A program made the translations under genes and the position numbers. The notes under the pieces were generated by a model. That model worked only from the letters and a program-made list of their open reading frames with translations, was not told the origin of the DNA and made no database searches. Of a stretch of 64,000 nucleotides of DNA, positions 22,928 through 44,220 are shown in pieces. The DNA comes from an uncultured Acidobacteriaceae bacterium (lineage in GTDB: Bacteria; Acidobacteriota; Terriglobia; Terriglobales; Acidobacteriaceae). The stretch covers positions 118,271 through 182,270 of the forward strand of contig CAZXKO010000038.1 of the NCBI GenBank assembly GCA_964641665.1, read 5' to 3'. How positions within the stretch are numbered: position 1 is the stretch's first letter; each line of letters starts with the position of its first letter.

Positions 22928-22986
22928 GGCAAAAGGCGCCGAACTTCGCGCTTACAGAGTGAAGTCTCCCCTGAGATTGATTTCGG

Positions 22987-27056: not shown

Positions 27057-28607
27057 CTACTGCTGCTCCTCCTGATAGGTGTCGATCAAGGCGATGGCGA
27101 CCTCGTCCAATTGCCGGCTGGAAAGTTCTCCCACCCGCCAGACGCGCTTGGTTCGGAGGGCCCAGAGTACGCCCAATCCGTAGGGCACCATGCTGATCAG
27201 AATCTGTATCCCAACCTGTACAACCGTACGAGCCAAGAACCAGTGGCGCATCAAGAACAAGGTCAGGACCAGTGGGGCACACAGGAGAAGGGGCAGAACG
27301 TAGGCCTCGCGGAGAAACGTGCCAACGCGAACGCCGAGGAGCCTGCACAGATGGCGAGGCATGAAGAACAGCGTCGTGCAGAGCAAAGGCAGCGCTGTGC
27401 CTGCAGCGTCGCCGAGGAGACCGAAAGGGCGGATCAGGACGACGCTGAGAATAAGGTTGGCCCCGCTCTCCATCAATGTGATCCAGGCATAGGACTGGTG
27501 TTTGGCCATACCGTACAGGATGCGGACCGAGGCGCCCTGAGCAAGAGCGAGCGTGCTGGGGATCAGCAGGACGAGAAGCACGGGGTAACTGATCGCGACG
27601 TAGCGAGCGCCCACCCAGGCGGTAATGACGGATCTCCCCAGAATGAGAAGAATCGCGGTGATGGGGAAGATGATGAGGGCGCAAGCGCGGTTACCGGCAA
27701 CCAAGATCTTTCTCAGCCGATCGATATCGCCTTGGGCGTCGGACTGGCCCGACATGGGAACAAAGATCTGGGCGAGGCTGCTCACGACTTCCGAGGCATA
27801 GTCGACGAGGCGGTCCGCGATGGAGAAGAAGGTAATCGCCGCGACCGGCATAAAGGCGCCAATAACAATCTCGTCGGTCTTGAAGCGCAGCTTGTAGGCG
27901 ATCATGAGGATAAAGCTGACGGCGCTGTAATTCGCGATCTCGCGGAAGGAACTGCGGTCGACGTATTTCCAACTGAGTGAAACGGGCAGGATGCGGAACA
28001 CGATGGCGGCACGGACAAGCGAACCAAGGATCGGCAAGCCGACTGTGATAAGAGCAACGGTGAGCAGGCCGCGGCCGTGATTCAGGGCGATGACGATGAG
28101 CACGGCACGAAGCAGGGTGGACGCGAGATTGGTGGCATTGACCCAATAAAAGCGCTGCAGGCCCTCGAGAATCCCGCCGAAGACGCCCGTGGGAAAGCCG
28201 AGAGCGACCGAGGCGCCGACCATAAGGAAGAGCCAACGGGCGGTGGCGAGGAACTCCAAGGGAATGTGGAACAAAGATTCGATGAACGAAGTGGCGAGCA
28301 GGGTGACGACCATCGTAAAGGCGCCGATCACGGCGTAGCTGAGGAGGCTGGTGTTGATGAGCTTCGCCAGGGCTTCGGTGTTGTTGGTGGCGCAGTAGGT
28401 GGAGACGTAGCGGATGACGGAGGAACGGATTCCTAGATCAAAGAGGCCGTAGTATCCGGTGACCGAGAAAATGAGGACCCAAATGCCGAAGGCGGTGTCG
28501 CCGAGGCGATGCAGGATGAAGGGGGAGAGGAAGATGCCAACCAGGATGTTGACTCCCAGGCTGAACCAACTGGAGCCGACATTCTTGACGATCTCAGTAT
28601 GGCGCAT
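27057..28607 (-). CDS. oligosaccharide/polysaccharide flippase (Wzx / MOP superfamily)
   Basis: 516 aa, 12 or more TM segments. N-terminus KNVGSSWFSLGVNILVGIFLSPFILHRLG is typical of polysaccharide biosynthesis flippases. Confidence 0.85.
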   Translation of the reverse strand: MRHTEIVKNVGSSWFSLGVNILVGIFLSPFILHRLGDTAFGIWVLIFSVTGYYGLFDLGIRSSVIRYVSTYCATNNTEALAKLINTSLLSYAVIGAFTMVVTLLATSFIESLFHIPLEFLATARWLFLMVGASVALGFPTGVFGGILEGLQRFYWVNATNLASTLLRAVLIVIALNHGRGLLTVALITVGLPILGSLVRAAIVFRILPVSLSWKYVDRSSFREIANYSAVSFILMIAYKLRFKTDEIVIGAFMPVAAITFFSIADRLVDYASEVVSSLAQIFVPMSGQSDAQGDIDRLRKILVAGNRACALIIFPITAILLILGRSVITAWVGARYVAISYPVLLVLLIPSTLALAQGASVRILYGMAKHQSYAWITLMESGANLILSVVLIRPFGLLGDAAGTALPLLCTTLFFMPRHLCRLLGVRVGTFLREAYVLPLLLCAPLVLTLFLMRHWFLARTVVQVGIQILISMVPYGLGVLWALRTKRVWRVGELSSRQLDEVAIALIDTYQEEQQ

Positions 28608-28658
28608 CGCTAGCGAAGCCTCGCAGCGGAAGTCGCGGTTGGCGGTGCGGTGCGGAAA

Positions 28659-29738
28659 TCAAACAGTCCTCGGCCCGGCGGGGGTATTCAGGTTGAGGGT
28701 CTCGGTGCTGAGTCCGAGGTCGTTCAGTAAGCGCGCTCCCTGTTCGCGTTTCCGGCGGGCCACGCGCTGGAGGTGGGAGCGATAATAACGTTGCAGCAAG
28801 CCCGGGAAAAGGCGAAGTGCGAGTTGGACGGCGAGTAGTCTCCAGTCATGGACGGCGGAGGTAGCCTTGCGAGCGGCGCGTCCGGCCTCGTCAAATTGCC
28901 CAGCTAGTAGCGACTGCCGCACGACGTCGAGTTGGATTTCCGCCTCAGTCTGCGAGATCTTGCCGCGGGCCATGAGGGCCTGCCTTTCCGTGAGCGGCTG
29001 CGTCGACGAGATCTTCCTGTAGACCTCAATGCGGGCCTGTCTCATGAGATCGCGGTTCCCGGCGAGTCCATTACCGAGCCGGTGGTACATCTGAATCTCG
29101 CGGGTGAAAGTCATTTTTACCCCATTGCGTGCCATTCGCAGCCACAGATCGTAGTCTTCACAGCGAATGAAGCGCTCATCGAACAGCCCGGCTTCGACGA
29201 GTGCCTGCCGTGAGGCCATGGTGGAGGAGGTGCTCACTGCGCATTCCTCGAGCAGGAGGTTTTCGAAGTCTACGGGCAGGGACTGGGGAGTGACCTCGAA
29301 GTCAATCGAGACCGGGTGGCTGCCCTCGAGCAGCACAGCGTTCGAATAGATGAGTCCGATAGAGGGATCCTTCTGGAGAGCCTCCACGTGTTTTGCCAAA
29401 TGATGAGGGAACCAAAGATCATCACTATCGAGGAATGCGATGTACTTTCCGCGCGCCTCCCGGATGCCCACGTTCCGGGCACTGCTGGGGCCGCGATTGT
29501 CCTGACGGAGGTAGCGAATCTTCGCAAGATACGGCTGCAAGGCTTGTTCGAGTGCCGGTGTGTCGGGCGAACCGTCATTGATAACGATGATTTCGTAGTT
29601 AGCGAGAGTCTGGGCCAGCACAGAATTCAAGGTCAACGCAATATAGGGGGCCGCGTTGTAGGCAGGGATGACGACGCTGACGAGCGGGCCAGGCGCCGAT
29701 GGGGGCTGCTGAGGAATGTCGGTCTGAGTCGAATTCAT
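28659..29738 (-). CDS. glycosyltransferase family 2
   Basis: VSVVIPAYNAAPYI, INDGSPD and DSDD motifs. Confidence 0.9.
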   Translation of the reverse strand: MNSTQTDIPQQPPSAPGPLVSVVIPAYNAAPYIALTLNSVLAQTLANYEIIVINDGSPDTPALEQALQPYLAKIRYLRQDNRGPSSARNVGIREARGKYIAFLDSDDLWFPHHLAKHVEALQKDPSIGLIYSNAVLLEGSHPVSIDFEVTPQSLPVDFENLLLEECAVSTSSTMASRQALVEAGLFDERFIRCEDYDLWLRMARNGVKMTFTREIQMYHRLGNGLAGNRDLMRQARIEVYRKISSTQPLTERQALMARGKISQTEAEIQLDVVRQSLLAGQFDEAGRAARKATSAVHDWRLLAVQLALRLFPGLLQRYYRSHLQRVARRKREQGARLLNDLGLSTETLNLNTPAGPRTV

Positions 29739-30055
29739 GCTCGGCTGCGGGTCAGGCCAGAACGCGCGATTTCAGTCGTCTGGGGACCGAACTCCAGAGT
29801 TTCGGCACTCTCCCAAATAATACGTTTCTCCAGTGCAGATTGCACGGTGGTTTCAGGCTCATGACAGAGGCGAGTTAGGTACCTCGTTCCACGTGGAAAT
29901 CGCCGCGCAAGGTCGTCAGGCGGCACAGAGATTACAGAGTGGCAAGGGCACCCATTCGGGGCGGGACGCGGCTCTGCCCTCTCGTGCCACCGGCGAAGGC
30001 TGCACGCGATTGATTTTTCTCATGAGGACGACGGCACTGGCGTCTGACACACGAC

Positions 30056-31195
30056 TCACGACGACTCCAGGGTCAGGTCTGCCCAGATGGTGGAGGGGGC
30101 CGGTGTCCTTGCGGGCGGTGCCTCCGCCGCGGACTGTCGCCAAGCGGCGTCCAGCACGGCTTGGACGGCGGGCATGTTGTCCAGGGTGGCGGCTTCGATG
30201 GTGAGGGAAATGTTCATCAAATCGGCGAATTCTCGAATCTTGCGATCGTAAGGCATGAGGATGACGGGACGGCCGCAAGATAAGGCCAGGACCGCCGCGT
30301 GCAGCCGCATGGCGACGACAAAGCGCGCAGCGCGTATCCAGCGACAGACTTCGTTCAAGTCGGCGGTCCAGGGGCGCAACTGTACTTGATCGGTGTGGCT
30401 CATGACCTGCGCAACGCGTTCGTGCAATTGAGCATCCCCATGCCCACTAGCCGGATTGGCTTGAAACGGGATGAAGATTACCTTGACCTGGTGGCGCTCG
30501 ATCAAGTCGTCCAAGCTGGCAGCCAGCGTCTGGATTCGAGTTCCGGTCATCTCATAAAGCCGGAAAACGTGCGGATCGTTCCGGAGACAGACCACCACGC
30601 AAGGTCGAGTCGCGGGCATTTCTGACAATAGGACTGAACGCTTGGCCAACAGGTCGGGCAAGCAGAGAACGATATCGGGGGCAAGTATAGTCTTCGCGCT
30701 GGCGTCGAGCTGGTGGCAGATTTTCTCGGATCGGTGGTCGCGCACAATGATGCGGCGGCTCCGGCGGAACACCCACCGTAAGAGGACGCGTCCGTAGCGG
30801 GTTGAAGGTTCCCCGACGCCTGCATTGACCAAGTAGACCTTTTTGCCGAGGAGAATAGCGACGATCATTTTCTCTATCGTGTAGAAGAACGTCCGCCACC
30901 CCAAATCATCACGAATGAGGTCGCCTCCGCCAACAATCAACGCGTCACTGTGGCGGATGGTGCGGAGCACGCGCAGGGCCCCGCCTTTGAACCACGCGGT
31001 GCGCCAGGCCCATTCTCCTAATAGAGGGCAATTCTCGACGGCGGGGAGTTGGTGGCTGCGCGTGACCTCAGCGGGCCGCTCCGACAAAACCGTCAGCTGG
31101 AAGTTCTGCCGCTCGAGCCAGGGTCGGAGACAGAACAGCATCATTTCGTCGCCCAGGTTTCCCATTCCGTAGTAGCCCATTAGCAGTGCTTTCAT
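30056..31195 (-). CDS. polysaccharide pyruvyl transferase family protein
   Basis: N-terminal GYYGMGNLGDEMM, as in CsaB/WcaK-type pyruvyl transferases; 379 aa. Confidence 0.8.
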   Translation of the reverse strand: MKALLMGYYGMGNLGDEMMLFCLRPWLERQNFQLTVLSERPAEVTRSHQLPAVENCPLLGEWAWRTAWFKGGALRVLRTIRHSDALIVGGGDLIRDDLGWRTFFYTIEKMIVAILLGKKVYLVNAGVGEPSTRYGRVLLRWVFRRSRRIIVRDHRSEKICHQLDASAKTILAPDIVLCLPDLLAKRSVLLSEMPATRPCVVVCLRNDPHVFRLYEMTGTRIQTLAASLDDLIERHQVKVIFIPFQANPASGHGDAQLHERVAQVMSHTDQVQLRPWTADLNEVCRWIRAARFVVAMRLHAAVLALSCGRPVILMPYDRKIREFADLMNISLTIEAATLDNMPAVQAVLDAAWRQSAAEAPPARTPAPSTIWADLTLESS

Positions 31196-31539
31196 TGAAG
31201 GCGCGTTGTTGTGAGATTCTCCCGGATCGAAGCAGTGACGCTGGTTTTGAAATCCGTGATTCGAGTGTAACCGACGTGCAAAGAACTGCTCGTGACCTGA
31301 TCCCCGCGATCTTGGTCATTCTGGCAGGGGGCCGATGTCGAGAAGCCGAAATCGTACGTCAGTCGGCCTTCTTCACGGGGGCAGCTGATTTCGTAACGAG
31401 GCGCACGAGCCTTGTTCGGGGAAATGACTACGGGACATCCGGACGGACGGAGCGGGGAAAGCGGCTCTCTTGCCGCGCCGGACGCGGGTTTTGGGCCAAG
31501 TTTTTTACTGGCCATACTCGTGTAATTGGTTCCACTCAT
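31192..31539 (-). CDS. hypothetical small protein, possibly translationally coupled to the pyruvyl transferase
   Basis: 115-aa ORF whose TGA overlaps the downstream ATG (ATGA at 31192-31195). No recognisable domain and no clear SD sequence. Confidence 0.3.
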   Translation of the reverse strand: MSGTNYTSMASKKLGPKPASGAAREPLSPLRPSGCPVVISPNKARAPRYEISCPREEGRLTYDFGFSTSAPCQNDQDRGDQVTSSSLHVGYTRITDFKTSVTASIRENLTTTRLQ

Positions 31540-31930
31540 TGGGACCGGACTGGCACTTTTGTCCTAATGTGTTTACCCTAGTCATTTCTAAGGACCTGAG
31601 GTCGCCCTGGTGTTCACGTCCCAGCGCAAGAAGCCAAGGTTGCGGGGGCCTAGCCCCCCGAATTGCAGCTGAGTTGAACCGTCCATTCGAAGGCGCCTCC
31701 TGCCCAAGCCCGTGCTGCGACCTCCGGCTGCCCGATAACTGATTTATTAACAATGCTTTACAAATCTCGTCGTGCCCGATTCAGGGCCCTAACACCTCAC
31801 CTGAATCTGGAGTTCATCTTGGTAACAGCCGAGGGCTTCGCGCTCAAGTTAACCGATCCCCTGTGGAAAACCAGGCCGAAGGCCCGTAGCAAAAAAATGC
31901 AGAAAGTTGGAACTGTGAGTGCTATGAGAT

Positions 31931-31954
31931 TTGGTAAGAACGTTGGTAAGAACG
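31931..31954. promoter_or_regulatory. perfect 12-bp tandem direct repeat (TTGGTAAGAACG x2) in a divergent promoter region
   Basis: Read directly: ttggtaagaacgttggtaagaacg. It lies about 120 nt upstream of LuxR A1. The regulatory role is inferred only. Confidence 0.45.
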
Positions 31955-32072
31955 CTCGTTTCAATCAATTGCAGTGGACGGACTGGCGGGGTAGCGGTGG
32001 GGCTTACGCGCTGAGCGCACCGCCGGCCAGAATCGCTCACTTTACAAAAAACATTCAGTTAGGGGGTATTGA

Positions 32073-32588
32073 ATGAGCGAAAGACCTGTCCGTCTGGGGC
32101 AGCGCGAACAACAGATCGTCGAACTGCTCTTGCAAGGTTGCGACAACGACGAAATCGCTCGACAACTCAATATGGCTCGTCGAACGGTGAAGGCCCATTT
32201 CAACCGTTTGTTCCTGCGATTCGGAATCACCAGCGGCATCAAGCGAGTAAAACTCGCGACACTCTTGTACCGGAGGCAGTTATGTTTGGAGGCGAACGCT
32301 ACGGAAAACGGATACCCAGTGAACGAGAGAGTAGAGTTATTGAACTTGTTGCCCAGGGACTCAAGAACAAAGAAGTCGCCGACGAAATCGGAACCACTGA
32401 ACACGTCGTCAAGAACTATCTCCGAGTCATCTACGACAAACTCGGACTCTGGAATCGGGTCGAACTCGCCCTCTGGTACGAAGCCCGCAGATTTGAGCAA
32501 ATCGCCAGAGCTTGAACCACTGGAGGCTTGGGAACACAGCGTCCTGGGCCTAAGCCCGGCTTCTCCTTCGGGGACACCACACCGGTAG
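32073..32588 (+). CDS. LuxR/GerE-type HTH mini-protein A1 (the ORF continues about 100 aa past the domain, out of frame through B1)
   Basis: GGGGG-type RBS upstream. The first ~70 aa, REQQIVELLLQGCDNDEIARQLNMARRTVKAHFNRLFLRFGITSGIKRVKLATLLY, form a GerE HTH. There is no stop until TAG 32586-32588. Confidence 0.7.
   Translation: MSERPVRLGQREQQIVELLLQGCDNDEIARQLNMARRTVKAHFNRLFLRFGITSGIKRVKLATLLYRRQLCLEANATENGYPVNERVELLNLLPRDSRTKKSPTKSEPLNTSSRTISESSTTNSDSGIGSNSPSGTKPADLSKSPELEPLEAWEHSVLGLSPASPSGTPHR
32282..32515 (+). CDS. LuxR/GerE-type HTH mini-protein B1
   Basis: GGAGG lies 5 nt upstream of the ATG. 77 aa: ERESRVIELVAQGLKNKEVADEIGTTEHVVKNYLRVIYDKLGLWNRVELALW. Confidence 0.8.
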   Translation: MFGGERYGKRIPSERESRVIELVAQGLKNKEVADEIGTTEHVVKNYLRVIYDKLGLWNRVELALWYEARRFEQIARA

Positions 32589-32616: not shown

Positions 32617-32653
32617 GGCTGCCCGGTAGTCTTACGGGCAGCCTGATGTTTTA
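32617..32653 (+). terminator. rho-independent terminator candidate after LuxR pair 1
   Basis: 9-bp stem ggctgcccg / cgggcagcc, 9-nt loop, followed by tgatgtttt. The right arm overlaps the last codons of the convergent gene. Confidence 0.55.
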
Positions 32654-33795
32654 AGCTCCCGGAGCCGCGTGACCGCTTCCGGGATCTGCTTGCGCGCGGC
32701 CGCCATCAACAATATCCGGGCCTGATCGCAATTCTTGGGCACGCCGTCCCCCGCCAGATACAACTCCGACAGCAAGAGCACGGCGGTGGTGTTTTCCTTC
32801 CGCACCGCTGCCCACAAAAAAGTGGCCGCTGCCGCACTGTCACGTGGCCGTTTCTTGCCCGTCAGGTAATCCTGCGCGGTTGCCAGTTCAACCGACCCGC
32901 TCGCTGTCGCGGGAATCGCGGGCGAGGGCAGAGGCGTTTCTGGTTTGCGAGGAACCGCCGTTACAACCACGCTGTTTGGGCGTGATGCGGTGACCCCTGG
33001 ACGAGGTGATGTGGCCGCGGGCGGATCTGTTGCCACGACCACTGAACTCGGCATCGGCTGAGAGGGAACTGGCGCCGGCGCGGGATCTGGTGCCGACACC
33101 CGAGCAGGCTTTTCTGCGACGACGCTGGCGGCCGGAACAGTTTGAGGCGTCGGCTGGCTCGCGTTCGAACGTCGCGAATTGGCGTAATAGAGAAGCGCCA
33201 GGAACACCACGCCCACCAATGCGACTCCGTACTTGGCCGGGTTCCACCGACGCGAGGCTGCCTTGAGAGCGAGATTCCTGTCGCGCAACCACTGGATTTC
33301 AGTAGTGCCGTTGCCGTTGGACGGCCGCGACGGCGTTTCCTCAAGTACCTCCGCGAACAGCGAAAGCGTGGGGAAAACGGGCTCGGGAACATTCTCGGCC
33401 GGACCGGCCTCTGTGGTGAACGGAGGCACTTCGGCATAGGCGGTGCCGCTTTGTTGCTCAGACAGCAGAGGCGATCCGCACATCCCGCAAAAGCGTTGGC
33501 CCGGGCTACTTGGATGTCCGCACTCCGTGCAGTCGCCGGGCTCGACTGCGACTGGCCTCTTCGGAACCTCGTAAATCGCCGCGGATGCCGGCGAAGGCGG
33601 GAGGGGTCCAGCCTCTGCCTCGAGTTCGCGCAGTAATTCGACGACAGCCTGCTCGCGCTTTTCCGGGGGAGTGGTGAAATAGACCTGTGCCCAGCGGCCC
33701 AGATTGCGGCCCAAGGTGGGGTTCTGCATGGGGTTCAACTCAGGATTGGGCAGGTCGGTGAGGCGATCGGGACTCTTTTCCTGAGGCTGCGCCAA
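32632..33795 (-). CDS. zinc-ribbon, single-pass membrane protein with C-terminal Sel1-like repeat
   Basis: CTECGHPSSPGQRFCGMCG; TM segment YGVALVGVVFLALLYY; Pro-rich linker; C-terminal LSELYLAGDGVPKNCDQARILLMAAA (Sel1/TPR-like). Confidence 0.75.
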   Translation of the reverse strand: MAQPQEKSPDRLTDLPNPELNPMQNPTLGRNLGRWAQVYFTTPPEKREQAVVELLRELEAEAGPLPPSPASAAIYEVPKRPVAVEPGDCTECGHPSSPGQRFCGMCGSPLLSEQQSGTAYAEVPPFTTEAGPAENVPEPVFPTLSLFAEVLEETPSRPSNGNGTTEIQWLRDRNLALKAASRRWNPAKYGVALVGVVFLALLYYANSRRSNASQPTPQTVPAASVVAEKPARVSAPDPAPAPVPSQPMPSSVVVATDPPAATSPRPGVTASRPNSVVVTAVPRKPETPLPSPAIPATASGSVELATAQDYLTGKKRPRDSAAAATFLWAAVRKENTTAVLLLSELYLAGDGVPKNCDQARILLMAAARKQIPEAVTRLRELKTSGCP

Positions 33796-33907: not shown

Positions 33908-35599
33908 TCAGTCGCAAACCTTGTGCTGCGCGGGTTCGAACTGATCCAACTGCGCATCATGCTGGCTGGCGATTCTCCCGTGCGGGGTTTTTCCGTACTG
34001 TTCGGAACCCGGGCAGTAGTACTGGGCAGTATGTACATCCACCCACACGGGAATGTTTGGATTTCCAGTGTAGGCCGGAGCTGGGGGTGGCTCGGCCAGA
34101 CCGATACTTACCATGAACTGCTCAAACATGCTCAGTTGCGGCGCGGGTGGTGGAGCCGGCTTGCGCTTTGATTTCGCGGGAGCGTTCGCGGCGGCAGCGG
34201 GGTTGGTGGCCGCCTGGGGACTTCCCGTGTTCGCTGAAGTGGTGGGGCGGTTGGATGAGACGGCCCAGATGATCGTGATCACGAACAGGATTCCGGCCGC
34301 GATCAGCGCCACATCGCCCGGGTGCTTGCGCAGAAGACCGCGTTGTTTCTCGAGGAATCCCTTGAGCTGCACGGCGGGCGGCGACACCGCGATCGAACGA
34401 AACCAGACCCGCGGCTCAGGGTTTTTCTCTGCGACCGGAATCGGTTCCGGTGGTTCTTCCACGGGATCGACGTCAAGCTCCTCCCGAGGCATAGGGGCGG
34501 CGAAATTCGTGTCCGGCTCGGGAAGTGCCGCCCGCTCGAAGGGCGCGGGCGGAGGATTCATGGCAGCCGGCTTCTCGGGAAGAATGAAGCTATCTGACTC
34601 CGCACTTGGCGGCGCAGGAGAGTCGACAGCCTTGATCACGGACTCAGCCAGGTCCTGCTCATCTTCGGACGCGCTCAACTGACTGCCGATCTTCTTGAGG
34701 TTCCAGAGTGTCGCCCACTTACTCTGGAGATCGCTCCTGAGAGTGGCGCTGCGCGAGGTGCCGCAATCTCCACAAAAGACTTCTCCGGCCGCCAGTTCGT
34801 GTCCGCAGTGCTGGCAATACGAGGCCTCCAGCGGAGTTTCAGCCGTGCTGTCGGGCGAAGCCCCCGCACTCGGTTCCTGCGCCAGACGCGCCAGTTGCGG
34901 CTTGATTTGCTCGAGCACCTGCAGCATGGAGGCCCGCTCTGCGGCGACTCCTTTGCGCCACTCTTCTTCCGCCGCATGCGTGAGAGCTTCCGTAACCAAT
35001 CCGGCCATGAGCTGGCAGGTGCGTACGTCGTTCTCATGGAAGGCGTTGGGCTTGGCAAAGACCAACTCGAGCGTGCCCGACGTCTTGCCATCGTGGAACA
35101 CAGGCACGGCGATCAGGGAACCGATCCCGAGTCTTCGAGTGATCTCGGGATTGACGAGGAAGTCGGTGTCCGCGTCGGTGCAGCGCAGGATGGCGTTGTG
35201 CACCAGCGTGGCCGCCGAAAGAGTAGCCTCGGCCCTAAGGGTGGCGCCGGCCTGCGGAGAAAGGGAACCGCTTGCGGCGCGATAGACGATCTTGTCCTGG
35301 TCGAGAATCCCGATCGCGGCGCCCTGTGCACCGGTGATCTTGCGAAGGCGCTCGACCACCAGATTCATGGCGCCTGCCAGGTCGAGGTGACTGCTGTGAA
35401 TCTGATGCTGAGTTTCGACGATCTCGGCGAGCGTGTTGGCGGAGTCGGAGTCGGTGCCCGGTTGGGATCCTGGGGCGGAGGACGGCTCACCGTCGTGGCG
35501 ATCCTGATGCTTCTGGACGACGTAGGCCGCGGCCAGCAACTTCTGGAAAGTTACCTCGTCCAGGACGGGCGCGCCCTCTTTGTCGGGAGATGAGCTCAT
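33908..35599 (-). CDS. GAF-domain, zinc-ribbon, single-pass membrane protein
   Basis: N-terminal GAF-like region (..GAAIGILDQDKIVYRAASG..LIAVPVFHDGKTSGTLELVF..); CQHCGHELAAGEVFCGDCG; TM segment VALIAAGILFVITIIWAV; short Cys-containing extracytoplasmic tail. Confidence 0.8.
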   Translation of the reverse strand: MSSSPDKEGAPVLDEVTFQKLLAAAYVVQKHQDRHDGEPSSAPGSQPGTDSDSANTLAEIVETQHQIHSSHLDLAGAMNLVVERLRKITGAQGAAIGILDQDKIVYRAASGSLSPQAGATLRAEATLSAATLVHNAILRCTDADTDFLVNPEITRRLGIGSLIAVPVFHDGKTSGTLELVFAKPNAFHENDVRTCQLMAGLVTEALTHAAEEEWRKGVAAERASMLQVLEQIKPQLARLAQEPSAGASPDSTAETPLEASYCQHCGHELAAGEVFCGDCGTSRSATLRSDLQSKWATLWNLKKIGSQLSASEDEQDLAESVIKAVDSPAPPSAESDSFILPEKPAAMNPPPAPFERAALPEPDTNFAAPMPREELDVDPVEEPPEPIPVAEKNPEPRVWFRSIAVSPPAVQLKGFLEKQRGLLRKHPGDVALIAAGILFVITIIWAVSSNRPTTSANTGSPQAATNPAAAANAPAKSKRKPAPPPAPQLSMFEQFMVSIGLAEPPPAPAYTGNPNIPVWVDVHTAQYYCPGSEQYGKTPHGRIASQHDAQLDQFEPAQHKVCD

Positions 35600-36056
35600 T
35601 GCGCTTACACCGAACCCCTTCCCGGGGATGAAGGGGCGATTCCCGCTTATTGTAGTGCAATTGCTACGCCAAAGCAGTCAACCGTCGTGAGCCTCCGCTC
35701 CTCAGGAGACCCTTCGGTGGTCGAAGCCGGGCGATTCGACTGCGTCCCTGGGAGGGCTGAGAGCCGGCGACCTAATCTGAATTGATTAGCTCAGGGATAA
35801 CAAAGCGCGCTAGAACGCTCCAGGACGCGTCGCGCGCGATCGGACGACCCCAAAAACCCCTCGACCCGACCCCCAAACGTTTCTCTTCGGGCTCCTGTAC
35901 GCAATTGACAGGCACTCTACGCGACATCGTGACCCCCACTCGCGGCCTGAAAAGCCGTTTTACGAGTTTTCAACGACTTAGCTTGTAGTGAACAAAATCT
36001 TGGTACTCGACGGCACGGCTTTGGAAACGGCAGTGCTGTCCCGGAGGGTGAGAACA

Positions 36057-36245: not shown

Positions 36246-39200
36246 CTATCGGTGGGAGGCTTGCGGGGTGGGGATGAGTTCTTCCCGCTCCACAGTTTCG
36301 CGACTCAGGTAGTAGTGCACCGCGGGGGTGATGATCAGCGACAGCACCATCGAGATCAGGATGCCGCCGATGACCGCGATGGCGAGCGGTTGCAACATCT
36401 GCGAACCGGCGCCGATGGCGAAGGCCAGCGGCAACATGCCGGCCATGGTCGCGAGAGCGGTCATGACGATGGGGCGAAGCCGGCGGCGTGCCGACTGCAG
36501 CATGGCGTCGTTTGCGGCCATGCCCAGGCGCCGGAACTTCTGATCAGCGTCGAGCAGCAGGATGCCGTTCTTGGCGACGATGCCTACGACCATGATCATG
36601 CCCATGAACGACGACACGTTGAACGTGGTGCGGGTGACCAGCAGGGCGATGAAGACTCCGGATGTCGAGAGCAGCGCCGAGGCGAGGATGGCCACGGGCG
36701 CCGCGAAAGTTCCGAATTCGAACAGCAGAACGATGAACACCAGCAGGATGGCGAGGATGAACACCATCACCAGGTCGTGAAACGACTTCTGCTGCTCTTC
36801 GTAGCGGCCGCCGTATTCCACACGAATGCCAGCCGGCAAGTGCAGCTGGGTAACGGTCTTTTGCACGGCGTCCATGGCGCTGCCCAGATCGACGCCTTCG
36901 AGGCGGGCGGTCACGGCGACGTCGCGCTGCAGGTTCTCGCGGCGGATTTCGTTTTGTCCAGGAAGTTCGGTGACGGTGGCGAGCGCGCCCAGCGTCGCGG
37001 TGTGCGCGGTGCTGCTGGTGAGCAGCGTGTCGCGCATGGCTTCGAGCGAGGCGCGATTGCTTTGCGGAAAACGCACGCGCAGGGTGTAGGCGCGGTCGTT
37101 GGCTACGACCGGTGTCGGCGCGGGTTCGCCTTCCAGGATGGCGGCCGCGTCGGTGGCGACTTCCTCAGCGGAGAATCCGGCGCGCGCGGCCACGCTCGGG
37201 TCCACCTGAAAAACTACTGCCGGCCCGCTGACCGTGTTGTCGATGCCGTTCAGCACATCGACGACGCCCTGAATTTTCGAGATGTTGTCGGCGACCTTCG
37301 GCGCCCACTCCGCCAGAACGTTGGGGTCCGGGGAAAAGAGTTTGATTTGAATGGGCTCGGGTGCGCTGGTGAGGTCGTCGATCATGTCCTGCAGCACCTG
37401 GGTGAATTCAACGTCGACGGCCGGTTCTTTCGCTTTGATTTCGGCGCGGACGTCAGCGATGACGTCATCGATGGCGCGGTCGCGTTTGTCCTTGAGCTTG
37501 ACGGAAATATCGCCGGTGTTGGCTTCGGTGACGGCGGCCAGGCCCAACTGCATGCCCGTCCGCCGCGAAGTGCTTTCGACCTCAGGGATCTCGTGCAGCA
37601 TCTGCTCGATGTGGCTGATGACGCGGTTGGTTTCGGCGAGCGAACTGCCTGCGGGCATGATGTAGTCGACGACGAAACCACCCTCATCCATCTCGGGCAG
37701 GAGATCGGAACCGGAGAAGCGATAGCAGATGTAGGACACTGCGATCAGGACCACGCTCAGAATTGCCAGCCACACCGGGCCGGCGACGGCGCGGCGCAAC
37801 CAGCGTTCGTGGAATGAGACGATGCGCTGGAAAAAGCCGCTCAGGTGCGCGTCTTCGGCGGCCAGCAGGCGGGAGATGGATTCTTCTTCGGGTTCTGTAG
37901 AGGCCTCGTCCGTGTCCTTCTTGCGCTTCCCGATGAAGTAGAGGCTCAGGTTCGGCGTCCAGGTCAGGGCCAGCGCAAGCGAGGTCAGCAGAGACACGGT
38001 CATGGTGATGGCCAGCGCGCGGAAGAAGGTGCCGGTTACACCCGTGATCGAAATCAGGGGGAGGAAAACCACGACTGGGGTGATCGTGGAACCGATCAGG
38101 GGAACGGTGATTTCCTGCAGCGCGCTATGGATGGCCTGGGTACGATTTTGCCCGGCGTCACGGTGCAGAACGATATTTTCGACGACCACGATGGCGTCGT
38201 CGATGACCAGACCGACCGCGGCCGCCAGACCGCCCAGGGTCATCAGGTCGAAGCTTTCGCCGAGGACCTTCAGCGCGATGAAGGTCACCAGAACCGTGAC
38301 CGGGATGACGAGTCCGGCGACGATCGAGGTGCCCCAGTCTCGCAGGAAGACGACCAGGATGATCGAGGCGAGGATCAGACCGAGCAGGATGGCGTCGCGC
38401 ACGCTCCGGATCGATTGCCCGACGATGATGGATTGATCGTAGAACGGGCGCAGTTCGATGCCCGGGGGCAAAGATTGCTGGATGCGCGCGACTTCTGCGT
38501 GCACCTCGTCGGCGACCTGCACCGTGTTGCTGTCGGGCTGGCGGTTGATGTTCAGCAGAATTGCCGGTTTGCCGTTGGCGTTGACGATGGTGTAAACGGG
38601 CTTGACGCCGTGCGTGACGCTGGCGATATCGCCGATACGGACCGGGATGCCCGCCGGAGTGGTCTTGATGACGGTGGCGGCGATCTGCTCGGGCGTGCGT
38701 ACCTGGGCGTTGATGAGGCCTAGCACCAACTGGTGGTTGCGCTCGATCAGGCCGGGCGAGTCGACGAGATTGGTGCGGCGGACGGCCTCGAGAATGTCAG
38801 GCACGGTGATCCCGGCGAGCTGGAGTCGTGCCGGGTCGGGAGTGATGTAGAACTCCGGCTCCTGGCCTCCCTGCACGAGAACGGTAGACACACCGTCCAG
38901 ACGATTGAGACGCGGCTTGATTTCATAAGTCGCCATCTCCCACAGCCTGGTCGGCGGCATGTTTTCGGACGTCAGGCTGTAGCCAAGGATGGGAAAGCTG
39001 GCGAAGGTCATGCGATGGGCTTCGATCTTCGCGGTGGCGGGGAGTTCGGGCTGGACGCGGGAGATCGCCGCATTCACGTATTGCAGCGTCTGGAACATGT
39101 CGATGTCCCAGCGGAAGAACAGGTCAACTTCAGCGGAGCCTCGGCTCGTAATGGAGCGGACCTGGAGCAGGCCGGGAACGCTATTGACGGTTTCTTCAAT

Positions 39201-39410
39201 GGGGCGGGTGATGGTGACCATCATCTGGTCGATGGGCATCACGCCGTTGTCGACCGCGATCAGGATGCGGGGAAAGTTCGTCGACGGAAACACGGATACC
39301 GGAATCGTGAAGGCGAGGTAGGCCCCCAGCAGGGCGAGCGTCAGGATCAGGAAGATCACCGAGCGGGAGTGCTTGGCGAACCAGTACGAGTTGTCGGTGT
39401 GATTCGACAC
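36246..39410 (-). CDS. efflux RND transporter permease subunit
   Basis: 1054 aa, 12-TM AcrB/CzcA-type architecture with two large periplasmic loops. Confidence 0.95.
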   Translation of the reverse strand: MSNHTDNSYWFAKHSRSVIFLILTLALLGAYLAFTIPVSVFPSTNFPRILIAVDNGVMPIDQMMVTITRPIEETVNSVPGLLQVRSITSRGSAEVDLFFRWDIDMFQTLQYVNAAISRVQPELPATAKIEAHRMTFASFPILGYSLTSENMPPTRLWEMATYEIKPRLNRLDGVSTVLVQGGQEPEFYITPDPARLQLAGITVPDILEAVRRTNLVDSPGLIERNHQLVLGLINAQVRTPEQIAATVIKTTPAGIPVRIGDIASVTHGVKPVYTIVNANGKPAILLNINRQPDSNTVQVADEVHAEVARIQQSLPPGIELRPFYDQSIIVGQSIRSVRDAILLGLILASIILVVFLRDWGTSIVAGLVIPVTVLVTFIALKVLGESFDLMTLGGLAAAVGLVIDDAIVVVENIVLHRDAGQNRTQAIHSALQEITVPLIGSTITPVVVFLPLISITGVTGTFFRALAITMTVSLLTSLALALTWTPNLSLYFIGKRKKDTDEASTEPEEESISRLLAAEDAHLSGFFQRIVSFHERWLRRAVAGPVWLAILSVVLIAVSYICYRFSGSDLLPEMDEGGFVVDYIMPAGSSLAETNRVISHIEQMLHEIPEVESTSRRTGMQLGLAAVTEANTGDISVKLKDKRDRAIDDVIADVRAEIKAKEPAVDVEFTQVLQDMIDDLTSAPEPIQIKLFSPDPNVLAEWAPKVADNISKIQGVVDVLNGIDNTVSGPAVVFQVDPSVAARAGFSAEEVATDAAAILEGEPAPTPVVANDRAYTLRVRFPQSNRASLEAMRDTLLTSSTAHTATLGALATVTELPGQNEIRRENLQRDVAVTARLEGVDLGSAMDAVQKTVTQLHLPAGIRVEYGGRYEEQQKSFHDLVMVFILAILLVFIVLLFEFGTFAAPVAILASALLSTSGVFIALLVTRTTFNVSSFMGMIMVVGIVAKNGILLLDADQKFRRLGMAANDAMLQSARRRLRPIVMTALATMAGMLPLAFAIGAGSQMLQPLAIAVIGGILISMVLSLIITPAVHYYLSRETVEREELIPTPQASHR

Positions 39411-39415
39411 GAGTT

Positions 39416-40915
39416 CTATTTGTCGTCCTTCTTGTCGTCTTTTGCGTCCGGATTGTCTTTCGCGTCGGAAGCGCCGGGTTTCTTCTCACCGGACGCGGCG
39501 GGCGCCTCGATGGTCACCTTGGTGTTGTCGGGCAGGCCGTAAGCGCCCGAGGTAATGACGCGATCTCCGGCGTGAATGCCGTCGGCAATCTGAACGCGAT
39601 CCCCATCGTGGATACCCGTCTTCACGGTTGTCTGGTGGGCGTGATTGTCCGTGCCGACGATCATCACGGTCGTTATGCCATCCTGCGCGATAAGTACCGA
39701 GGCGGCCGGCACAGCGACCGCGTCTTTCACGGTTTGCGCCAGCATGGAAACTTGCACGCTGGTGCCGGGCTTTAAACGCTGCTTGGGATTTGCCGCCTGC
39801 ACCCAGACTTCGACGGTGGTGCTGTTGGGATCGAGGGCCGGGCTGATGACAGTGACCTTGCCCTCGACGGGGTCGTCTTCTCCGGGGGCGGCGAGAGTGG
39901 CGGGGTCGCCGAGTTTCAGCAGGGCGGCGTCGGGCTGGGGGATGTGGGCCTTGGCGATGACGTGCGAAATGTCCATGACGGTGATGAGAGGAGTGCCGGC
40001 GGCGGCCATCTCACCGGGGTAGAGCGGGCGATCGGTGACGAAGCCGTCGATGGGGCTGCGGATCTCGGAGTAGCTGAGCTGCGCTTCGGCTCCCATGGAC
40101 TTGCCCTTGGCGGCCTGCAGTTGGCCGGCTGCGGACTTGAGTTCTTGCTGTTTGCCGATGGCCTGGAGAGCGTCGAAGTGCTTCTTCGCAAGCTCGTACT
40201 GGTTGCGGGCCTGGGTGAGGTCGACGCCGGCCTGGTCGAGTTCCTTGCGGGGCAGGGCGCCCTGTTGGAAGAGCTCTTCGCGGCTGTGGAAGACCTTCTC
40301 CTGGGCGTCGAGGAGTTTCTTGGCCGCCTCGGTGTCGAACTGCGCTTTCTGCATTTCTTCGGGAAGGCTGGCGGCGGTGGTGGTTTCGTAGGCTGCTTGA
40401 GCCTGGGCGAGGTTGCCTTTGTTCTCTTCGGTCGAGGCAGTCAGGTCGCGGTTCTCGAGGACGGCGAGGAGTTGGTCCTTGTGCACTCGGTTGCCGCGGT
40501 TGACGTAGAAGGTGCGGACGGGGGCGCTGATCTTGGGTGTGATCGCGGCTTGCTGCAGGGGGAAGAGAATGGCCTGCGCGGTGATGGTCTGGTGGAGGGT
40601 GGCTTTCTCGGCGGCGACCGCTTGCACGGAGACAGCGGCTTCTTCCTTGGTTTCCTTGGAGCAGGCGGAGGAGAAGAGCAAGGCGGCGAGGGCGAGATAG
40701 ATCGTGTAGGCCCAGACGCCCTCGTCTGGGCGGCCGGGCGGCTGCCCGGCATTTTGTTTGCGGGCGTGCGCGGTATGTTCGCAGCGAAAACCGGCGGAGC
40801 TGCGCTCCGGTGGGCAGACGAGGGCGTCTGCGCCTACGCGAGCCGGAGCGTCTGCCCCTACGCGGGTTGGGGCGTTTGTCCCGATGCGGGTTGTGGCGCG
40901 GCGGACGAGATTCAT
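39416..40915 (-). CDS. efflux RND transporter periplasmic adaptor (MFP) with an unusual ~70-aa N-terminal extension
   Basis: Lipoprotein-like LALAALLFSSAC, coiled-coil hairpin and beta-barrel regions. The ATG overlaps the TolC stop by 1 nt (TAATG). K/D-rich C-terminal tail. Confidence 0.9.
   Translation of the reverse strand: MNLVRRATTRIGTNAPTRVGADAPARVGADALVCPPERSSAGFRCEHTAHARKQNAGQPPGRPDEGVWAYTIYLALAALLFSSACSKETKEEAAVSVQAVAAEKATLHQTITAQAILFPLQQAAITPKISAPVRTFYVNRGNRVHKDQLLAVLENRDLTASTEENKGNLAQAQAAYETTTAASLPEEMQKAQFDTEAAKKLLDAQEKVFHSREELFQQGALPRKELDQAGVDLTQARNQYELAKKHFDALQAIGKQQELKSAAGQLQAAKGKSMGAEAQLSYSEIRSPIDGFVTDRPLYPGEMAAAGTPLITVMDISHVIAKAHIPQPDAALLKLGDPATLAAPGEDDPVEGKVTVISPALDPNSTTVEVWVQAANPKQRLKPGTSVQVSMLAQTVKDAVAVPAASVLIAQDGITTVMIVGTDNHAHQTTVKTGIHDGDRVQIADGIHAGDRVITSGAYGLPDNTKVTIEAPAASGEKKPGASDAKDNPDAKDDKKDDK
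40824..40895. repeat. 24-nt tandem repeat x3 inside the 5' end of the MFP gene
   Basis: gcgtctgcgcctacgcgagccgga / gcgtctgcccctacgcgggttggg / gcgtttgtcccgatgcgggttgtg. Encodes RIGTNAPT-RVGADAPA-RVGADALV on the minus strand. Confidence 0.8.
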
Positions 40916-42327
40916 TAGAAGCTCCCCGTCAGGGTTTGCAATGTGGCAATCGACAGGCGGTAGCGGGCCTGGCCGTCAGCATACGCGTTGCGGGCCTGGG
41001 TGCGCGTGTTCTGCGCGTCGACGACTTCGAGGACCGTCGACTCGCCGGCCTGGTAGCGCATGGTGGTGAGGCGCAGACTGTCGTCGGCGAGTTCGGCGGA
41101 CTGGCTGAGCGAATCGAGTTCGGCGCGCGAGGTTTCGGCCTCGGCGTAGAAGGCGCGCAGGTTGCTGATCGCCTGACGCTGGGCAAAGCTTAACTCGACG
41201 CGGGCCTGGTTGCGGCGCAGGTCGGCCTGCTTCAGCTTGCTGATGTTGGCGCCCCAGCTCCAGAGGGGGATCTGAATGCTGGCCACGATGGAGGATCCCA
41301 GATTATTTACGAATTGATTCGCGACGGGATCGAACTGGCGGGTGGCGAAGTGGCTGGAGTCGATGCCATAGAAGTAGTCGACGCTGGCCGAGGGGAGCAA
41401 GCCGCTCCAGGCGCTGGTGACGTCGTGCTTGGCGACCTGGAGGGCAGCCACGGCTGCGCGCAGTTCCGGATTCTTTTGCGCGGCCATGGCCTGCACTTCA
41501 GGGTACTGGGGGAGGGACACGGGCATCTGCAGATCGTCGACCACGTTGAAATTCTCGTTGAAATCGGGAAAGAGCAGGACGGCGAGTTCGAGGCGGCTTT
41601 TTCCCATGCCGAGTCGGGATTCCTGCAGGTCGCGCTGCTGCTGCTCGAACTGGAGGCGCGCCTTGATTACGTCGGAGTGCGCGACCTCGCCGCCTTTTTC
41701 GAGTTTCTGACTGATGTCGAGGAATTTTCTGGCTTCTTCGGCGGCGAGTTGTTCAGTTCCGTACTTGCGCTGGGCGACGACCAGTCCGTAGTACGACTGA
41801 ACAATTGTGACGACCAGGCCGCGAGCGGCGATCTCGGCGCGGGCTTTCGCCAGAGCTTCGGCGGCGGCGGCGCGGCGATAGTCGCCGTATGCGGCGAGCG
41901 AGAATACCTGGTGAACGTTGCCTTGGCTGAGGTATTCGTGGACGCCGTTGTTGGCGATGTAGGCCGCGGTGTTGGAGCGGGTGCCGTTACCCTGCGAGTA
42001 AATGAAGTCGGTGTTGTAGTTGACGTTGGGAAGAAGTCCGGCACGGCCCTGCACGCGGTCTTCGTGGGCGAGGCCAAGCTCGGTGAGCGCGGCACGAAAG
42101 TCGGGGCTGTTGGCCTGGGCGCGTTGGAGCGCGTCCTGAAGGGTGAGGGTGACAGGGGCGGCTGCGGACTGTGCGTTGGGACCTGTGGCTGGCGGGGCCG
42201 GTTCATTCTGGGCGAGCGCGGTGAGGCCGAGGGCCAGCGTCGCAAGAAGCAGGGGCCAAAGTTTGAGTTCGAATGATGCGCCCGAGGCGCGAGCGATTTT
42301 CATGTCCACCCTCACGATTTCAGTCAC
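40915..42327 (-). CDS. TolC-family outer membrane efflux protein
   Basis: 470-aa ORF with two-repeat TolC architecture. The likely start is ATG 42303 (MKIARAS..LLLATLALGLTALAQ signal). Confidence 0.9.
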   Translation of the reverse strand: MTEIVRVDMKIARASGASFELKLWPLLLATLALGLTALAQNEPAPPATGPNAQSAAAPVTLTLQDALQRAQANSPDFRAALTELGLAHEDRVQGRAGLLPNVNYNTDFIYSQGNGTRSNTAAYIANNGVHEYLSQGNVHQVFSLAAYGDYRRAAAAEALAKARAEIAARGLVVTIVQSYYGLVVAQRKYGTEQLAAEEARKFLDISQKLEKGGEVAHSDVIKARLQFEQQQRDLQESRLGMGKSRLELAVLLFPDFNENFNVVDDLQMPVSLPQYPEVQAMAAQKNPELRAAVAALQVAKHDVTSAWSGLLPSASVDYFYGIDSSHFATRQFDPVANQFVNNLGSSIVASIQIPLWSWGANISKLKQADLRRNQARVELSFAQRQAISNLRAFYAEAETSRAELDSLSQSAELADDSLRLTTMRYQAGESTVLEVVDAQNTRTQARNAYADGQARYRLSIATLQTLTGSF

Positions 42328-42600: not shown

Positions 42601-42843
42601 ATGATCAATCTGGAAGCCATCAAAATTACTCCCCGGGACGAGGAAGTCTTGCGGCTGCTTGCGCAAGGATGCAGCAACAAGGAAATCGCCGGACATCTCA
42701 ACATCAGCCCACGCACCGTGAAGCAACACCTGCGCACGCTGTTCCTGCGCGCCGGGATCACCGAGGGGCGCAAACGAGTGAAGTTGGCCACCGCCATGTA
42801 CGTCAAAGAGGAGATGGAATCATGCAGCCCTGCGATCAGCTAA
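42601..42843 (+). CDS. LuxR/GerE-type HTH mini-protein A2
   Basis: AGGAG RBS; 80 aa: [56 protein letters not shown]. The ORF is open from 42400, but the upstream part looks non-coding. Confidence 0.8.
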
Positions 42844-43103
42844 CACGAAAAGAAATTCAGGTTGCCACGCTCGTCTGGGAAGGTCTGACGAACCGGGACA
42901 TCGCGAAAATTATCGGGACCACGGAGCAGGTGGTGAAGAACTACTTGCGGACTGCGTTCGACAAGCTGGGAGTTTGGAGCCGGCTGGAATTGGCGCTCTA
43001 TATTGCCAGCCACGGGGGCGTGAACTGGGTAACGGAACTCGGGCTGGACGTGGAACCGGCGGCCGAGCACGAGTTGAGCCGGGTGGCTTACGCGGGGAGG
43101 TAG
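42822..43103 (+). CDS. LuxR/GerE-type HTH mini-protein B2
   Basis: GAGGAG RBS; the ATG lies 22 nt before the A2 stop. 93 aa: [52 protein letters not shown]. Confidence 0.8.
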
Positions 43104-43566: not shown

Positions 43567-44220
43567 CTAGGGGCGGGCGCTGGCTAGGGTATCGAGATAG
43601 CGCTTCAGCTGCTCGCGGTCGTCGGTCTTGATTTCTTCGAATTGGATGCCGACGCCGGAGCCGGGGCGGGCGGCGGCGACTCTGCCGACAGCCCAGACCT
43701 TCTTGTCTTGGATCCACAGGGCGAGCCGAACTTTCGTTCCCTCTTTCAGGGTGCTCGACATTTCGACGAAGCAGCCGCCCAGGCTGATGTCAGAGACGCG
43801 TCCCCAGATCCGGCTTTCCTGACTGGCGGGGTGGATTTCGACCGAGAGCGAGCAGCGGCGGCGAGGGTGCTGGCGGCGCTCATTGAGAGAACGGGCGCGG
43901 ACGAGATCTTCAGTGGTGGCCGGGAGGGGGAAATCCCAGATGATTTCCTCGGATTTAACGCTCTGCAAGCCGGCGAGATTTTGCTGCGGAGTGGCGGGGG
44001 TGCCGATCCAGCGGACTTCGTAGCGGCTCTTGGACTTCCCGTAGACGATGCCGATGACCTCGCCCACCTTGAGCTGGGTCCTGACCTCGATGACCATGGC
44101 TCCGGCGCGGCTGACGTTTACGGTGAAGACATTTTCGTTGAAGGTTTTTCCGGCGGCGTCGGTTCCGAAGATTCGGACGGGGACCCGGATGTCCTTGCGC
44201 GGCTCCCGGCGGCTAACCAT
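43567..44220 (-). CDS. PilZ domain protein (degenerate N-terminal + canonical C-terminal PilZ)
   Basis: C-terminal RRQHPRRR ... DISLGGCFV (RxxxR / DxSxxG). The N-terminal domain has RKDIRVPV but NVSRAG. Confidence 0.8.
   Translation of the reverse strand: MVSRREPRKDIRVPVRIFGTDAAGKTFNENVFTVNVSRAGAMVIEVRTQLKVGEVIGIVYGKSKSRYEVRWIGTPATPQQNLAGLQSVKSEEIIWDFPLPATTEDLVRARSLNERRQHPRRRCSLSVEIHPASQESRIWGRVSDISLGGCFVEMSSTLKEGTKVRLALWIQDKKVWAVGRVAAARPGSGVGIQFEEIKTDDREQLKRYLDTLASARP

Follow-up and report, generated by a model that had tools for sequence, protein, structure and literature searches.

The 64,000-nucleotide (nt) stretch of DNA studied here, referred to as the window (contig CAZXKO010000038.1, positions 118,271 to 182,270, from an uncultured Acidobacteriaceae bacterium), includes two pairs of short genes, A1-B1 and A2-B2, the products of which are small LuxR/GerE-type helix-turn-helix (HTH) proteins. 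We propose that A and B together form one asymmetric transcription factor of the GerE type with two HTH domains, which occurs either split into two chains or fused in a single one and which has been duplicated as a unit; we give this reading a probability of about 0.6. It is founded on the invariant pairing of the two genes, on their co-duplication, on the repeated interconversion with single-chain forms and on the complementary last helices of the two domains. Syntenic orthologues in which A and B are fused provide strong indirect support for their working as one unit. The features that we infer are a physical complex of A with B, the binding to DNA, the dependence on sigma-54 and the genes targeted.

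The four GerE-type genes of the window

In a Pfam scan, all four proteins exceed the gathering cut-off of the family GerE (PF00196, 23.5 bits); scores and coordinates are collected in Table 1. A1, B1, A2 and B2 match only families of the HTH clan in Pfam and NCBIfam, and no receiver, autoinducer-binding, ATPase or further domain; in Pfam, neither the Response_reg receiver domain nor the autoinducer-binding domain PF03472 is matched by any of them. An earlier note on this DNA had claimed that the products are GerE-type HTH proteins devoid of sensor domains, and the four matches bear this out; the motifs that it had quoted as shared by the A and by the B proteins are likewise present in the sequences. 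NCBIfam yielded no specific family for A or B, and sub-threshold matches only, to PedR, MalT, CsgD, NarL and EpsA. A1 and A2 are identical at 33 of 64 residues (52%) and B1 and B2 at 30 of 53 (57%), the identity of A versus B being about 30%. A 3-residue insertion (GIT.G.KR) ahead of the last helix is a feature of the A type. The G+C content of the window is 60%, and proteins identical to those of the window were found in soil metagenomes and in a Terriglobales/Acidobacteriota metagenome-assembled genome (MAG).

The Cys of the QGC motif (A1 Cys23, 32139-32141; A2 Cys24, 42670-42672) is nearly invariant among A domains; in B domains and in canonical LuxR-type HTH domains its place is taken by Leu or some other hydrophobic residue. 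By analogy with the small LuxR-type protein PedR, a redox role of this Cys is conceivable.

Upstream of the A1 ATG (32073) there is a GGGGG Shine-Dalgarno (SD) sequence, and the B1 ATG (32282) lies 5 nt behind the SD GGAGG (32272-32276); B2 is preceded by an SD-like GAGGAG located inside A2. That the start of B lies before the stop of A, as had been noted, is true of both loci, but it comes about by two different routes. A2 and B2 overlap by 22 nt, B2 being in the -1 frame of A2, whereas B1, also in the -1 frame, is wholly nested in the 171-amino-acid (aa) open reading frame (ORF) of A1, which is free of stops until 32588. As for the coupled synthesis of A and B that had been proposed on these grounds, termination-reinitiation can apply to A2-B2 but not to A1-B1, since the stop of A1 comes 73 nt after that of B1.

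Conservation of the A-B pair and its duplication as a unit

When one genome per species was scanned, at least 577 A-type relatives were obtained, of which the best 80 loci, 77-90% identical to A2, were studied. In the 79 complete loci of other Terriglobales species (the 80th being interrupted by a contig end), A2 is followed by B2 without exception, A2 is 80 aa long with an ATG start in 79/79, and in 79/79 B2 begins with an ATG that follows AAGGAG and precedes the A2 stop by exactly 22 nt. Such a repetition in all complete loci of other species places the A-B architecture far beyond chance. The mean amino acid identity to the window proteins is 0.84 for A2, versus a difference of 0.55 at 4-fold degenerate sites, and 0.81 for B2, versus 0.63; both genes are under strong purifying selection. 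Pairs corresponding to A1-B1 (type 1, as opposed to type 2 for A2-B2) recur in other Terriglobales genomes, so that the adjacency of A and B extends beyond this genome for both types. Among about 95 occurrences, no A-type gene without B was found.

To compare the domains, a neighbor-joining tree was built from 40 A and 40 B domains of split and fused forms and of both types, without outgroups. All A domains stand apart from all B domains (n = 80), the type-1 and type-2 clades are mirrored within the A and the B halves, and fused and split members are interspersed. The reciprocity of the A and B clades, for which a tree of GerE domains had been suggested as a check, is thus confirmed in this outgroup-free tree, and with the clades clean and the types mirrored, the earlier contention that the A-B unit, rather than a single gene, was duplicated holds good.

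Each class can be recognized by a signature present in all of its members in the 80-domain comparison. A domains show QGC.N.EIA, RTVK.H in the recognition helix and G.KRVKLA in the last helix; B domains show G(T/S).E..VKNYLR and DKLG.W.R.ELAL. The last helix is therefore basic in A (G.KRVKLA) and acidic in B (W.R.ELAL). An ordinary NarL-type regulator of the same genomes (L031) has an output domain similar to the B-type HTH, and A is the divergent partner of the two.

Fused single-chain orthologues

A profile search covering 1.84 billion representative proteins returned many proteins of 130-250 aa with two matched stretches. These fused chains consist of an A domain, a linker of 15-25 residues and a B domain, and both type 1 and type 2 are represented. 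A homologue search starting from one fusion gave dozens of 90%-identity clusters of full-length proteins, 145-155 aa long and with two GerE matches; their members are 44-100% identical to the query and come from JGI, ENA and NCBI assemblies. The distant fused forms are all metagenome proteins.

Two contigs connect the fused genes to the window by synteny. L102 carries, in this order, the flippase gene, a fused type 1 gene, the zinc-ribbon/Sel1 gene, the GAF/zinc-ribbon gene, a split A2-B2, the PilZ gene and a pentose-phosphate operon, which is the gene order of the window without its efflux operon. In L101, a fused type 1 gene is located about 6.6 kb from a split A2-B2. The relation is of the Rosetta-stone kind, as syntenic orthologues (L102 and L101) encode A and B in one ORF. 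Single-nucleotide insertions or deletions (indels) divide fused from split forms in two separate clades: besides the indel that distinguishes the window from L102, described below, an independent 1-nt indel in the linker separates the fused L101 from the split L050, L060 and L093. Neither the fused nor the split state is merely an artefact of long reads, because L060 and many contigs of the window clade derive from short reads and fusions are also found in JGI short-read assemblies; individual fused or split entries may be artefactual.

On a contig of Candidatus Acidiferrales, the gene after a fused A-B codes for a protein with GAF and TonB_C domains. A distant fused A-B protein of 243 aa (P0264) has at its N-terminus a segment similar to the Fis-type HTH with which sigma-54 enhancer-binding proteins (EBPs) end, and judging from this resemblance an EBP gene may lie directly upstream of P0264 in its organism. 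In unrelated metagenome proteins (P0121-P0128, P0168, P0178 and P0196), GerE-like HTH domains are strung in tandem, 4 to 22 per chain and in some chains of two alternating types, and hence arrays of multiple GerE domains exist as an uncharacterized architecture.

An AlphaFold2 (AF2) model was obtained for the fused orthologue P0299, rather than for the window proteins, from an alignment of 43 sequences. It contains two well-folded four-helix domains (pLDDT 85-93) joined by a low-confidence linker; its pTM of only 0.47 leaves the arrangement of the two domains unpredicted and speaks neither for nor against an interface between them. In Foldseek, the P0299 domains match the DNA-binding domains of NarL, DosR, LiaR, VraR and GerE with a target TM of 0.74-0.89 and an rmsd of 0.5-2.5 Å (entries 1ZLK, 1JE8, 4WT0, 7VE5 and 1FSE; TM 0.74-0.82 for 1FSE); each of the two domains reaches a TM of 0.8-0.89 with NarL, DosR, LiaR or GerE. 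Two GerE stretches in one chain were not found in the PDB.

According to an alternative that we regard as unlikely, A and B act independently, as two GerE-like regulators that are homodimeric and simply co-transcribed, with possible antagonism through mixed dimers or through competition for sites. The strict 1:1 co-occurrence, with no A-type gene lacking B, the invariant overlap, the mirrored co-duplication and the repeated fusion would all be unexpected for such regulators. It is true, on the other hand, that GerE and NarL-type output domains act as homodimers (established knowledge, and the case of the PDB relatives), that the P0299 model shows no confident A-B packing, and that B is not intrinsically pair-dependent, since a B-type HTH also serves as the output domain of the ordinary NarL-type response regulator of L031.

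The A1-B1 locus: a split by one nucleotide

The fused gene of L102 reads CAGTTACTGTTTGG where the window and its clade read CAGTTA-TGTTTGG, a single-base difference. This 1-nt indel at 32282/32283, a lost C, both creates the B1 ATG (TT ATG TTT) and shifts the frame. The A part of the L102 protein is 97% identical to A1, and its B part 94% identical to B1. Because of the indel, A1 runs out of frame over the whole of B1 down to 32588; its residues ~73-171, a Ser/Thr/Pro-rich tail of about 95 residues, match no domain and represent out-of-frame read-through. Residues 1-78 of A1 are identical across six related contigs, the tail being variable yet open, and at least 23 contigs encode a B1 protein with 100% identity. 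As the SD and the near-ATG belong to the coding sequence for the conserved RRQL(W/C/L), the fused gene is pre-adapted to survive splitting. In the second clade (L050, L060 and L093), A1 is 91 aa long and overlaps B1 by about 67 nt.

Every member of the window clade keeps the A1 frame open across B1, despite a divergence of about 40% at 4-fold sites. Selection for an open frame was considered as an explanation and is not favored. The chance of a stop-free A1 frame over B1 is about 0.05 by simulation, and among the stop-free runs of real genes 11% equal or exceed the A1 tail in length. B1 of the window clade uses CTG, GTG or TTG for 0-2 of its 14-16 Leu/Val codons, versus 5-9 in the sister clade, but most of the avoided NTG codons could not have made stops; moreover, the divergence of B1 at 4-fold sites is not reduced. 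We consider the A1 tail to be probably a by-product without constraint, the avoidance of stops being at most suggestive.

The same observations raise the question of whether the split state, that of A1-B1 above all, reflects a fused gene that was frameshifted and is decaying as a pseudogene, or one that was misassembled, so that type 2 alone would be functional. One nucleotide indeed separates A1-B1 from the fused L102, the A1 tail shows no amino acid constraint beyond that due to B1 itself, and public gene callers call B1 alone at split type-1 loci, so that A1 is missed in public annotation. Nevertheless, we find this very unlikely: the identical split sequence occurs in many independent short-read assemblies, an independent split is present in the second clade, the indel itself places an ATG 5 nt after GGAGG, and both halves are under strong purifying selection among type-1 pairs (87-100% identity for B1 and 90-100% for A1, at a 4-fold-site divergence of 0.25-0.4).

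Lower still is the credit that we give to a joining of the two frames during expression, by programmed -1 ribosomal frameshifting or transcriptional slippage, into a fused A-B protein. Such a joining would fit the -1 position of B relative to A at both loci, the B frame that is open across the whole of A at both, and the fact that fused A-B proteins are the norm among relatives. We ruled against programmed frameshifting as no X XXY YYZ slippery heptamer is present in the overlap 42822-42843 or in 32265-32300, and no homopolymer run in the overlap or around 32270-32290; in addition, each B gene has a conserved SD and ATG of its own, and long open -1 frames are to be expected at 60% GC.

Promoter-like elements

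Sigma-54 promoters are defined by a -24 GG and a -12 GC (TGGCAC-N5-TTGCW) at a fixed spacing upstream of the gene. When 80 regions upstream of A2 were compared by phylogenetic footprinting, one sharply conserved block stood out, GCGAA-N-ATTTGGCGAA-N4-TTGCT, situated about 45-60 nt upstream of the A2 ATG. The pattern TGGCGAA-N4-(T/G)TGC(T/A) is present in 78 of the 80 regions, versus 4.7% of control windows, and in this element the -24 GG and the -12 GC are invariant and canonically spaced. A second, weaker candidate precedes A1: TGGAACTGTGAGTGCT is kept in the close clade, and its counterpart in the distant clade, TGGCCGCGTGAATGCA, preserves the GG-N10-GC spacing. As TGGCGTAGCAATTGC is a good -24/-12 match before the GAF/zinc-ribbon gene, the genes of the module may share sigma-54 control. 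No sigma-70 consensus promoter was found upstream of A1-B1 or of A2-B2, and no Rfam family in the whole window, the A1 upstream region included.

A direct repeat, GCGAA-N6-GCGAA (42533-42548), overlaps the -24 element, and both of its copies are nearly invariant in 78 loci; it could serve autoregulation or be related to an enhancer. Elsewhere in the window the repeat shows no enrichment (15 matches at one mismatch, versus 10 expected). The intergenic region upstream of A1 (31196-32072) is unusually long (877 nt), with about 200 nt conserved in close relatives; it is overlapped by a 107-aa ORF (31753-32076), the equivalent of which is called as a gene in the related contig L011.

Proposed mechanism and points against it

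A and B would be the two non-identical halves of a tandem-GerE unit, produced either as a single polypeptide or from two overlapping genes. The recognition helices differ (RTVK.H in A, E..VKNYLR in B), which implies an asymmetric operator; taking the C-terminal helices also into account, we suggest that a 1:1 A-B pseudo-dimer would read an asymmetric bipartite site. The whole unit was duplicated long ago to give types 1 and 2, which flank two zinc-ribbon membrane-protein genes, and type 1 owes its split state in this genome to the indel at 32282/32283. As A and B lack a sensor domain, control is probably exerted on their synthesis; a sigma-54-type promoter before A2-B2 would require an enhancer-binding protein. 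From the gene neighborhood, further control by the GAF/zinc-ribbon membrane proteins and the PilZ protein may be added.

Several points weigh against this proposal. A fused protein could dimerize with itself, and split A and B could form homodimers; the P0299 model shows no confident packing between the domains and does not include DNA. Some fused or frameshifted entries come from long-read MAGs and may carry indel errors. The sigma-54 assignment of A2-B2 has a sequence motif as its sole basis, and in the window we found neither an rpoN or enhancer-binding protein gene nor a repeated operator motif beyond the single site at the A2 promoter.

Relationship to known systems

LuxR-type proteins without sensor are an established subfamily typified by GerE (PMC4783005). 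As in GerE, A and B are stand-alone LuxR/FixJ-type four-helix HTH proteins of about 75-90 aa, without sensor, the activity of which would be set mainly by their expression (PMC4783005). Unlike GerE, a single gene coding for a homodimer, A and B are two different domains, always encoded together by overlapping or fused genes, and the A type carries the 3-residue insertion and the basic last helix. The similarity to the NCBIfam model of PedR is weak (33 bits versus an equivalog cut-off of 120).

VisN and VisR of the Rhizobiaceae are adjacent, co-transcribed LuxR-family genes whose products presumably form a heterodimeric activator (PMC9812332). A and B are likewise two adjacent, co-oriented LuxR-family genes; in contrast to VisN and VisR, of about 245 aa and with N-terminal domains resembling ligand-binding ones, they code for bare HTH domains, and their NCBIfam TransRegVisN score is 15.3 bits versus a cut-off of 250. 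To our knowledge, neither fused single-chain forms nor a duplication of the pair are known for VisNR.

Heterodimers of FixJ/NarL-type HTH proteins acting on asymmetric sites are formed by RcsB with RcsA, BglJ or GadE, and by Streptomyces BldM with WhiI; RcsA-RcsB controls capsule/exopolysaccharide genes. A and B are also two different FixJ/NarL-type HTH proteins. RcsB and its partners, as well as BldM-WhiI, are full-length response regulators or larger, usually encoded apart, able to form homodimers too, and with no obligatory pairing, overlap or fusion. With the database proteins that contain two or more than three GerE domains, such as the four-domain P0168, P0178 and P0196 with two alternating types, fused A-B chains share the presence of several GerE domains per chain, but those proteins are uncharacterized, lack a solved structure and are not closely related to the A and B clades. 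Two-component response regulators of the NarL/FixJ kind possess a receiver with a phospho-acceptor Asp, whereas A1, B1, A2 and B2 lack a receiver and have the size of a bare HTH; the label "NarL/FixJ response regulators" given to such proteins at source (JGI) is therefore an over-annotation.

No description of the A-B module was found in the literature searched, in keeping with the earlier remark that no described system of this form was known to its author; sensor-less GerE proteins and presumed LuxR-family heterodimers are kinds already known. What sets the module apart is the existence of two distinct bare heads, their obligatory pairing with a fixed overlap, the natural single chains, the duplication as a unit and the conserved zinc-ribbon/sigma-54-type setting.

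Terriglobia are abundant soil bacteria, and we are aware of almost no experimental knowledge of their gene regulation. The A-B module occurs in hundreds of Terriglobia genomes, usually in two copies, beside polysaccharide and envelope genes. It offers a natural case of a LuxR/GerE-type factor with two different heads which, to judge from its helices, should read asymmetric operators, unlike the palindromes of homodimers; the natural fusions are ready-made single-chain constructs for structural and DNA-binding work. It also illustrates how an indel of one nucleotide can convert a one-chain regulator into a two-chain one or back, the sequence coding for RRQL(W/C/L) already holding the SD and the near-ATG. 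Current annotation is wrong twice, in the response regulator label and in missing the type-1 A gene where it overlaps B.

Genomic neighborhood

Table 1. Coordinates of the A-B genes, of neighboring genes and of promoter-like elements in the window.
Feature	Coordinates	Strand	Evidence
A1 ORF, 171 aa, A-type GerE HTH in residues 1 to ~72	32073..32588	+	Pfam GerE 46.2 bits, residues 8-55
B1, 77 aa, B-type GerE HTH	32282..32515	+	Pfam GerE 49.1 bits
A2, 80 aa, A-type GerE HTH	42601..42843	+	Pfam GerE 52.2 bits
B2, 93 aa, B-type GerE HTH	42822..43103	+	Pfam GerE 45.8 bits
Flippase, GT2 and pyruvyl-transferase genes, divergent from A1	27057..31195	-	Pfam
Membrane protein with N-terminal zinc ribbon, hydrophobic segment, Pro-rich spacer and C-terminal Sel1-like repeat	32632..33795	-	Pfam Zn_Ribbon_1, DZR; Sel1 sub-threshold
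Protein with GAF domain, zinc ribbon, hydrophobic segment and Cys-containing C-terminal domain	33908..35599	-	Pfam GAF_2, Zn_Ribbon_1
TolC-like OEP, MFP and RND efflux operon, divergent from A2	36246..42327	-	Pfam
PilZ-domain protein, convergent with B2	43567..44220	-	Pfam PilZ 78 bits
Sigma-54-type -24/-12 promoter-like element TGGCGAAGGGTGTGCA with preceding GCGAA	42533..42557 (window version 42542-42557)	+	Footprint, 80 loci
Candidate sigma-54-type element TGGAACTGTGAGTGCT, ~150 nt upstream of A1 (weaker evidence)	31908..31923	+	Read from sequence
Sigma-54-like -24/-12 match TGGCGTAGCAATTGC, ~58 nt upstream of the GAF/zinc-ribbon gene start	35657-35671	-	Sequence match

The conserved gene order is type-1 unit, zinc-ribbon/Sel1-like protein, GAF/zinc-ribbon protein, type-2 unit and PilZ protein. 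The zinc-ribbon/Sel1 gene is syntenic between the two pairs in L007-L012, L014, L016, L019, L041, L077 and L102, and a PilZ gene is also found in L001-L005, L013, L074, L077 and L102. The C-terminal segment 480-563 of the GAF/zinc-ribbon protein is conserved upstream of A2 in at least 47 loci. The extracytoplasmic domain of ~75 aa in it (residues ~488-563; window 33908-34150), with the motif VWVD.HT..YYCPG...YGKT..G......A..D.FEPA....C, is, across Terriglobales, what is best conserved of the gene upstream of A2, even where GAF is missing, and it has no Pfam match even at E = 5. In distant Terriglobales, the gene upstream of A2 retains the zinc ribbon and the Cys-containing C-terminal domain of ~75 aa.

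Both pairs had earlier been described as divergent from envelope operons. This is true in the window, but at the second locus the link is not conserved: the efflux operon is present in 5 of the 80 genome loci (L013, L015, L017, L018 and L078) and in L096-L098, and is absent from the syntenic L102. It is a lineage-specific insertion, found in a minority of loci, that separates A2-B2 from the GAF/zinc-ribbon gene; most species have, divergent from A2, the gene of a zinc-ribbon membrane protein, with or without GAF.

These neighbors bear on two further ideas. According to the first, A and B would not be classical operator-binding factors but modules akin to sigma region 4, with RNA polymerase as their target or with the zinc-ribbon membrane proteins sequestering them as anti-sigma factors do. 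A1 (28.4 bits) and A2 (33.6 bits) do exceed the Pfam cut-off of Sigma70_r4_2 (25.7 bits), and the most conserved neighbors are zinc-ribbon membrane proteins with a cytoplasmic N-terminus. The GerE scores of A1 and A2 are nonetheless higher than those for sigma region 4, a sigma region 2 partner is absent, the structural matches go to NarL/DosR/GerE DNA-binding domains, and it is the neighborhood only that speaks for sequestration; we hold this idea to be highly improbable.

The second idea enlarges the proposal of a single two-headed A-B factor. As the output of a so far undescribed signalling scheme, the sensor-less pseudo-dimer would be held or released by the zinc-ribbon (with or without GAF) membrane proteins, which, with a cytoplasmic zinc ribbon and an extracytoplasmic domain, can be likened to anti-sigma factors; with sigma-54 and c-di-GMP (PilZ) as further inputs, it would control exopolysaccharide/envelope genes across Terriglobia, and frequent switching between fused and split forms by single-nucleotide indels would tune the stoichiometry. 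Taken as a whole, this picture is speculative, and we look upon it as doubtful.

The window contains a second PilZ protein (57541-58194), which adjoins an OEP-MFP-MFS efflux operon (58960-63364); both PilZ proteins are 217 aa long. The flippase, GT2 and pyruvyl-transferase genes divergent from A1 are the end of a polysaccharide biosynthesis region of about 30 kb, which also comprises GT4 glycosyltransferases, a UDP-glucose dehydrogenase, a deacetylase, a heparinase II/III-like protein and an AsnB-like amidotransferase (15784-20096), and a bifunctional ATP sulfurylase/APS kinase with a CysQ-like phosphatase (21334-24804). Together, the sulfurylase/kinase, CysQ, heparinase-like and AsnB-like genes hint at an exopolysaccharide that may be sulfated or amidated.

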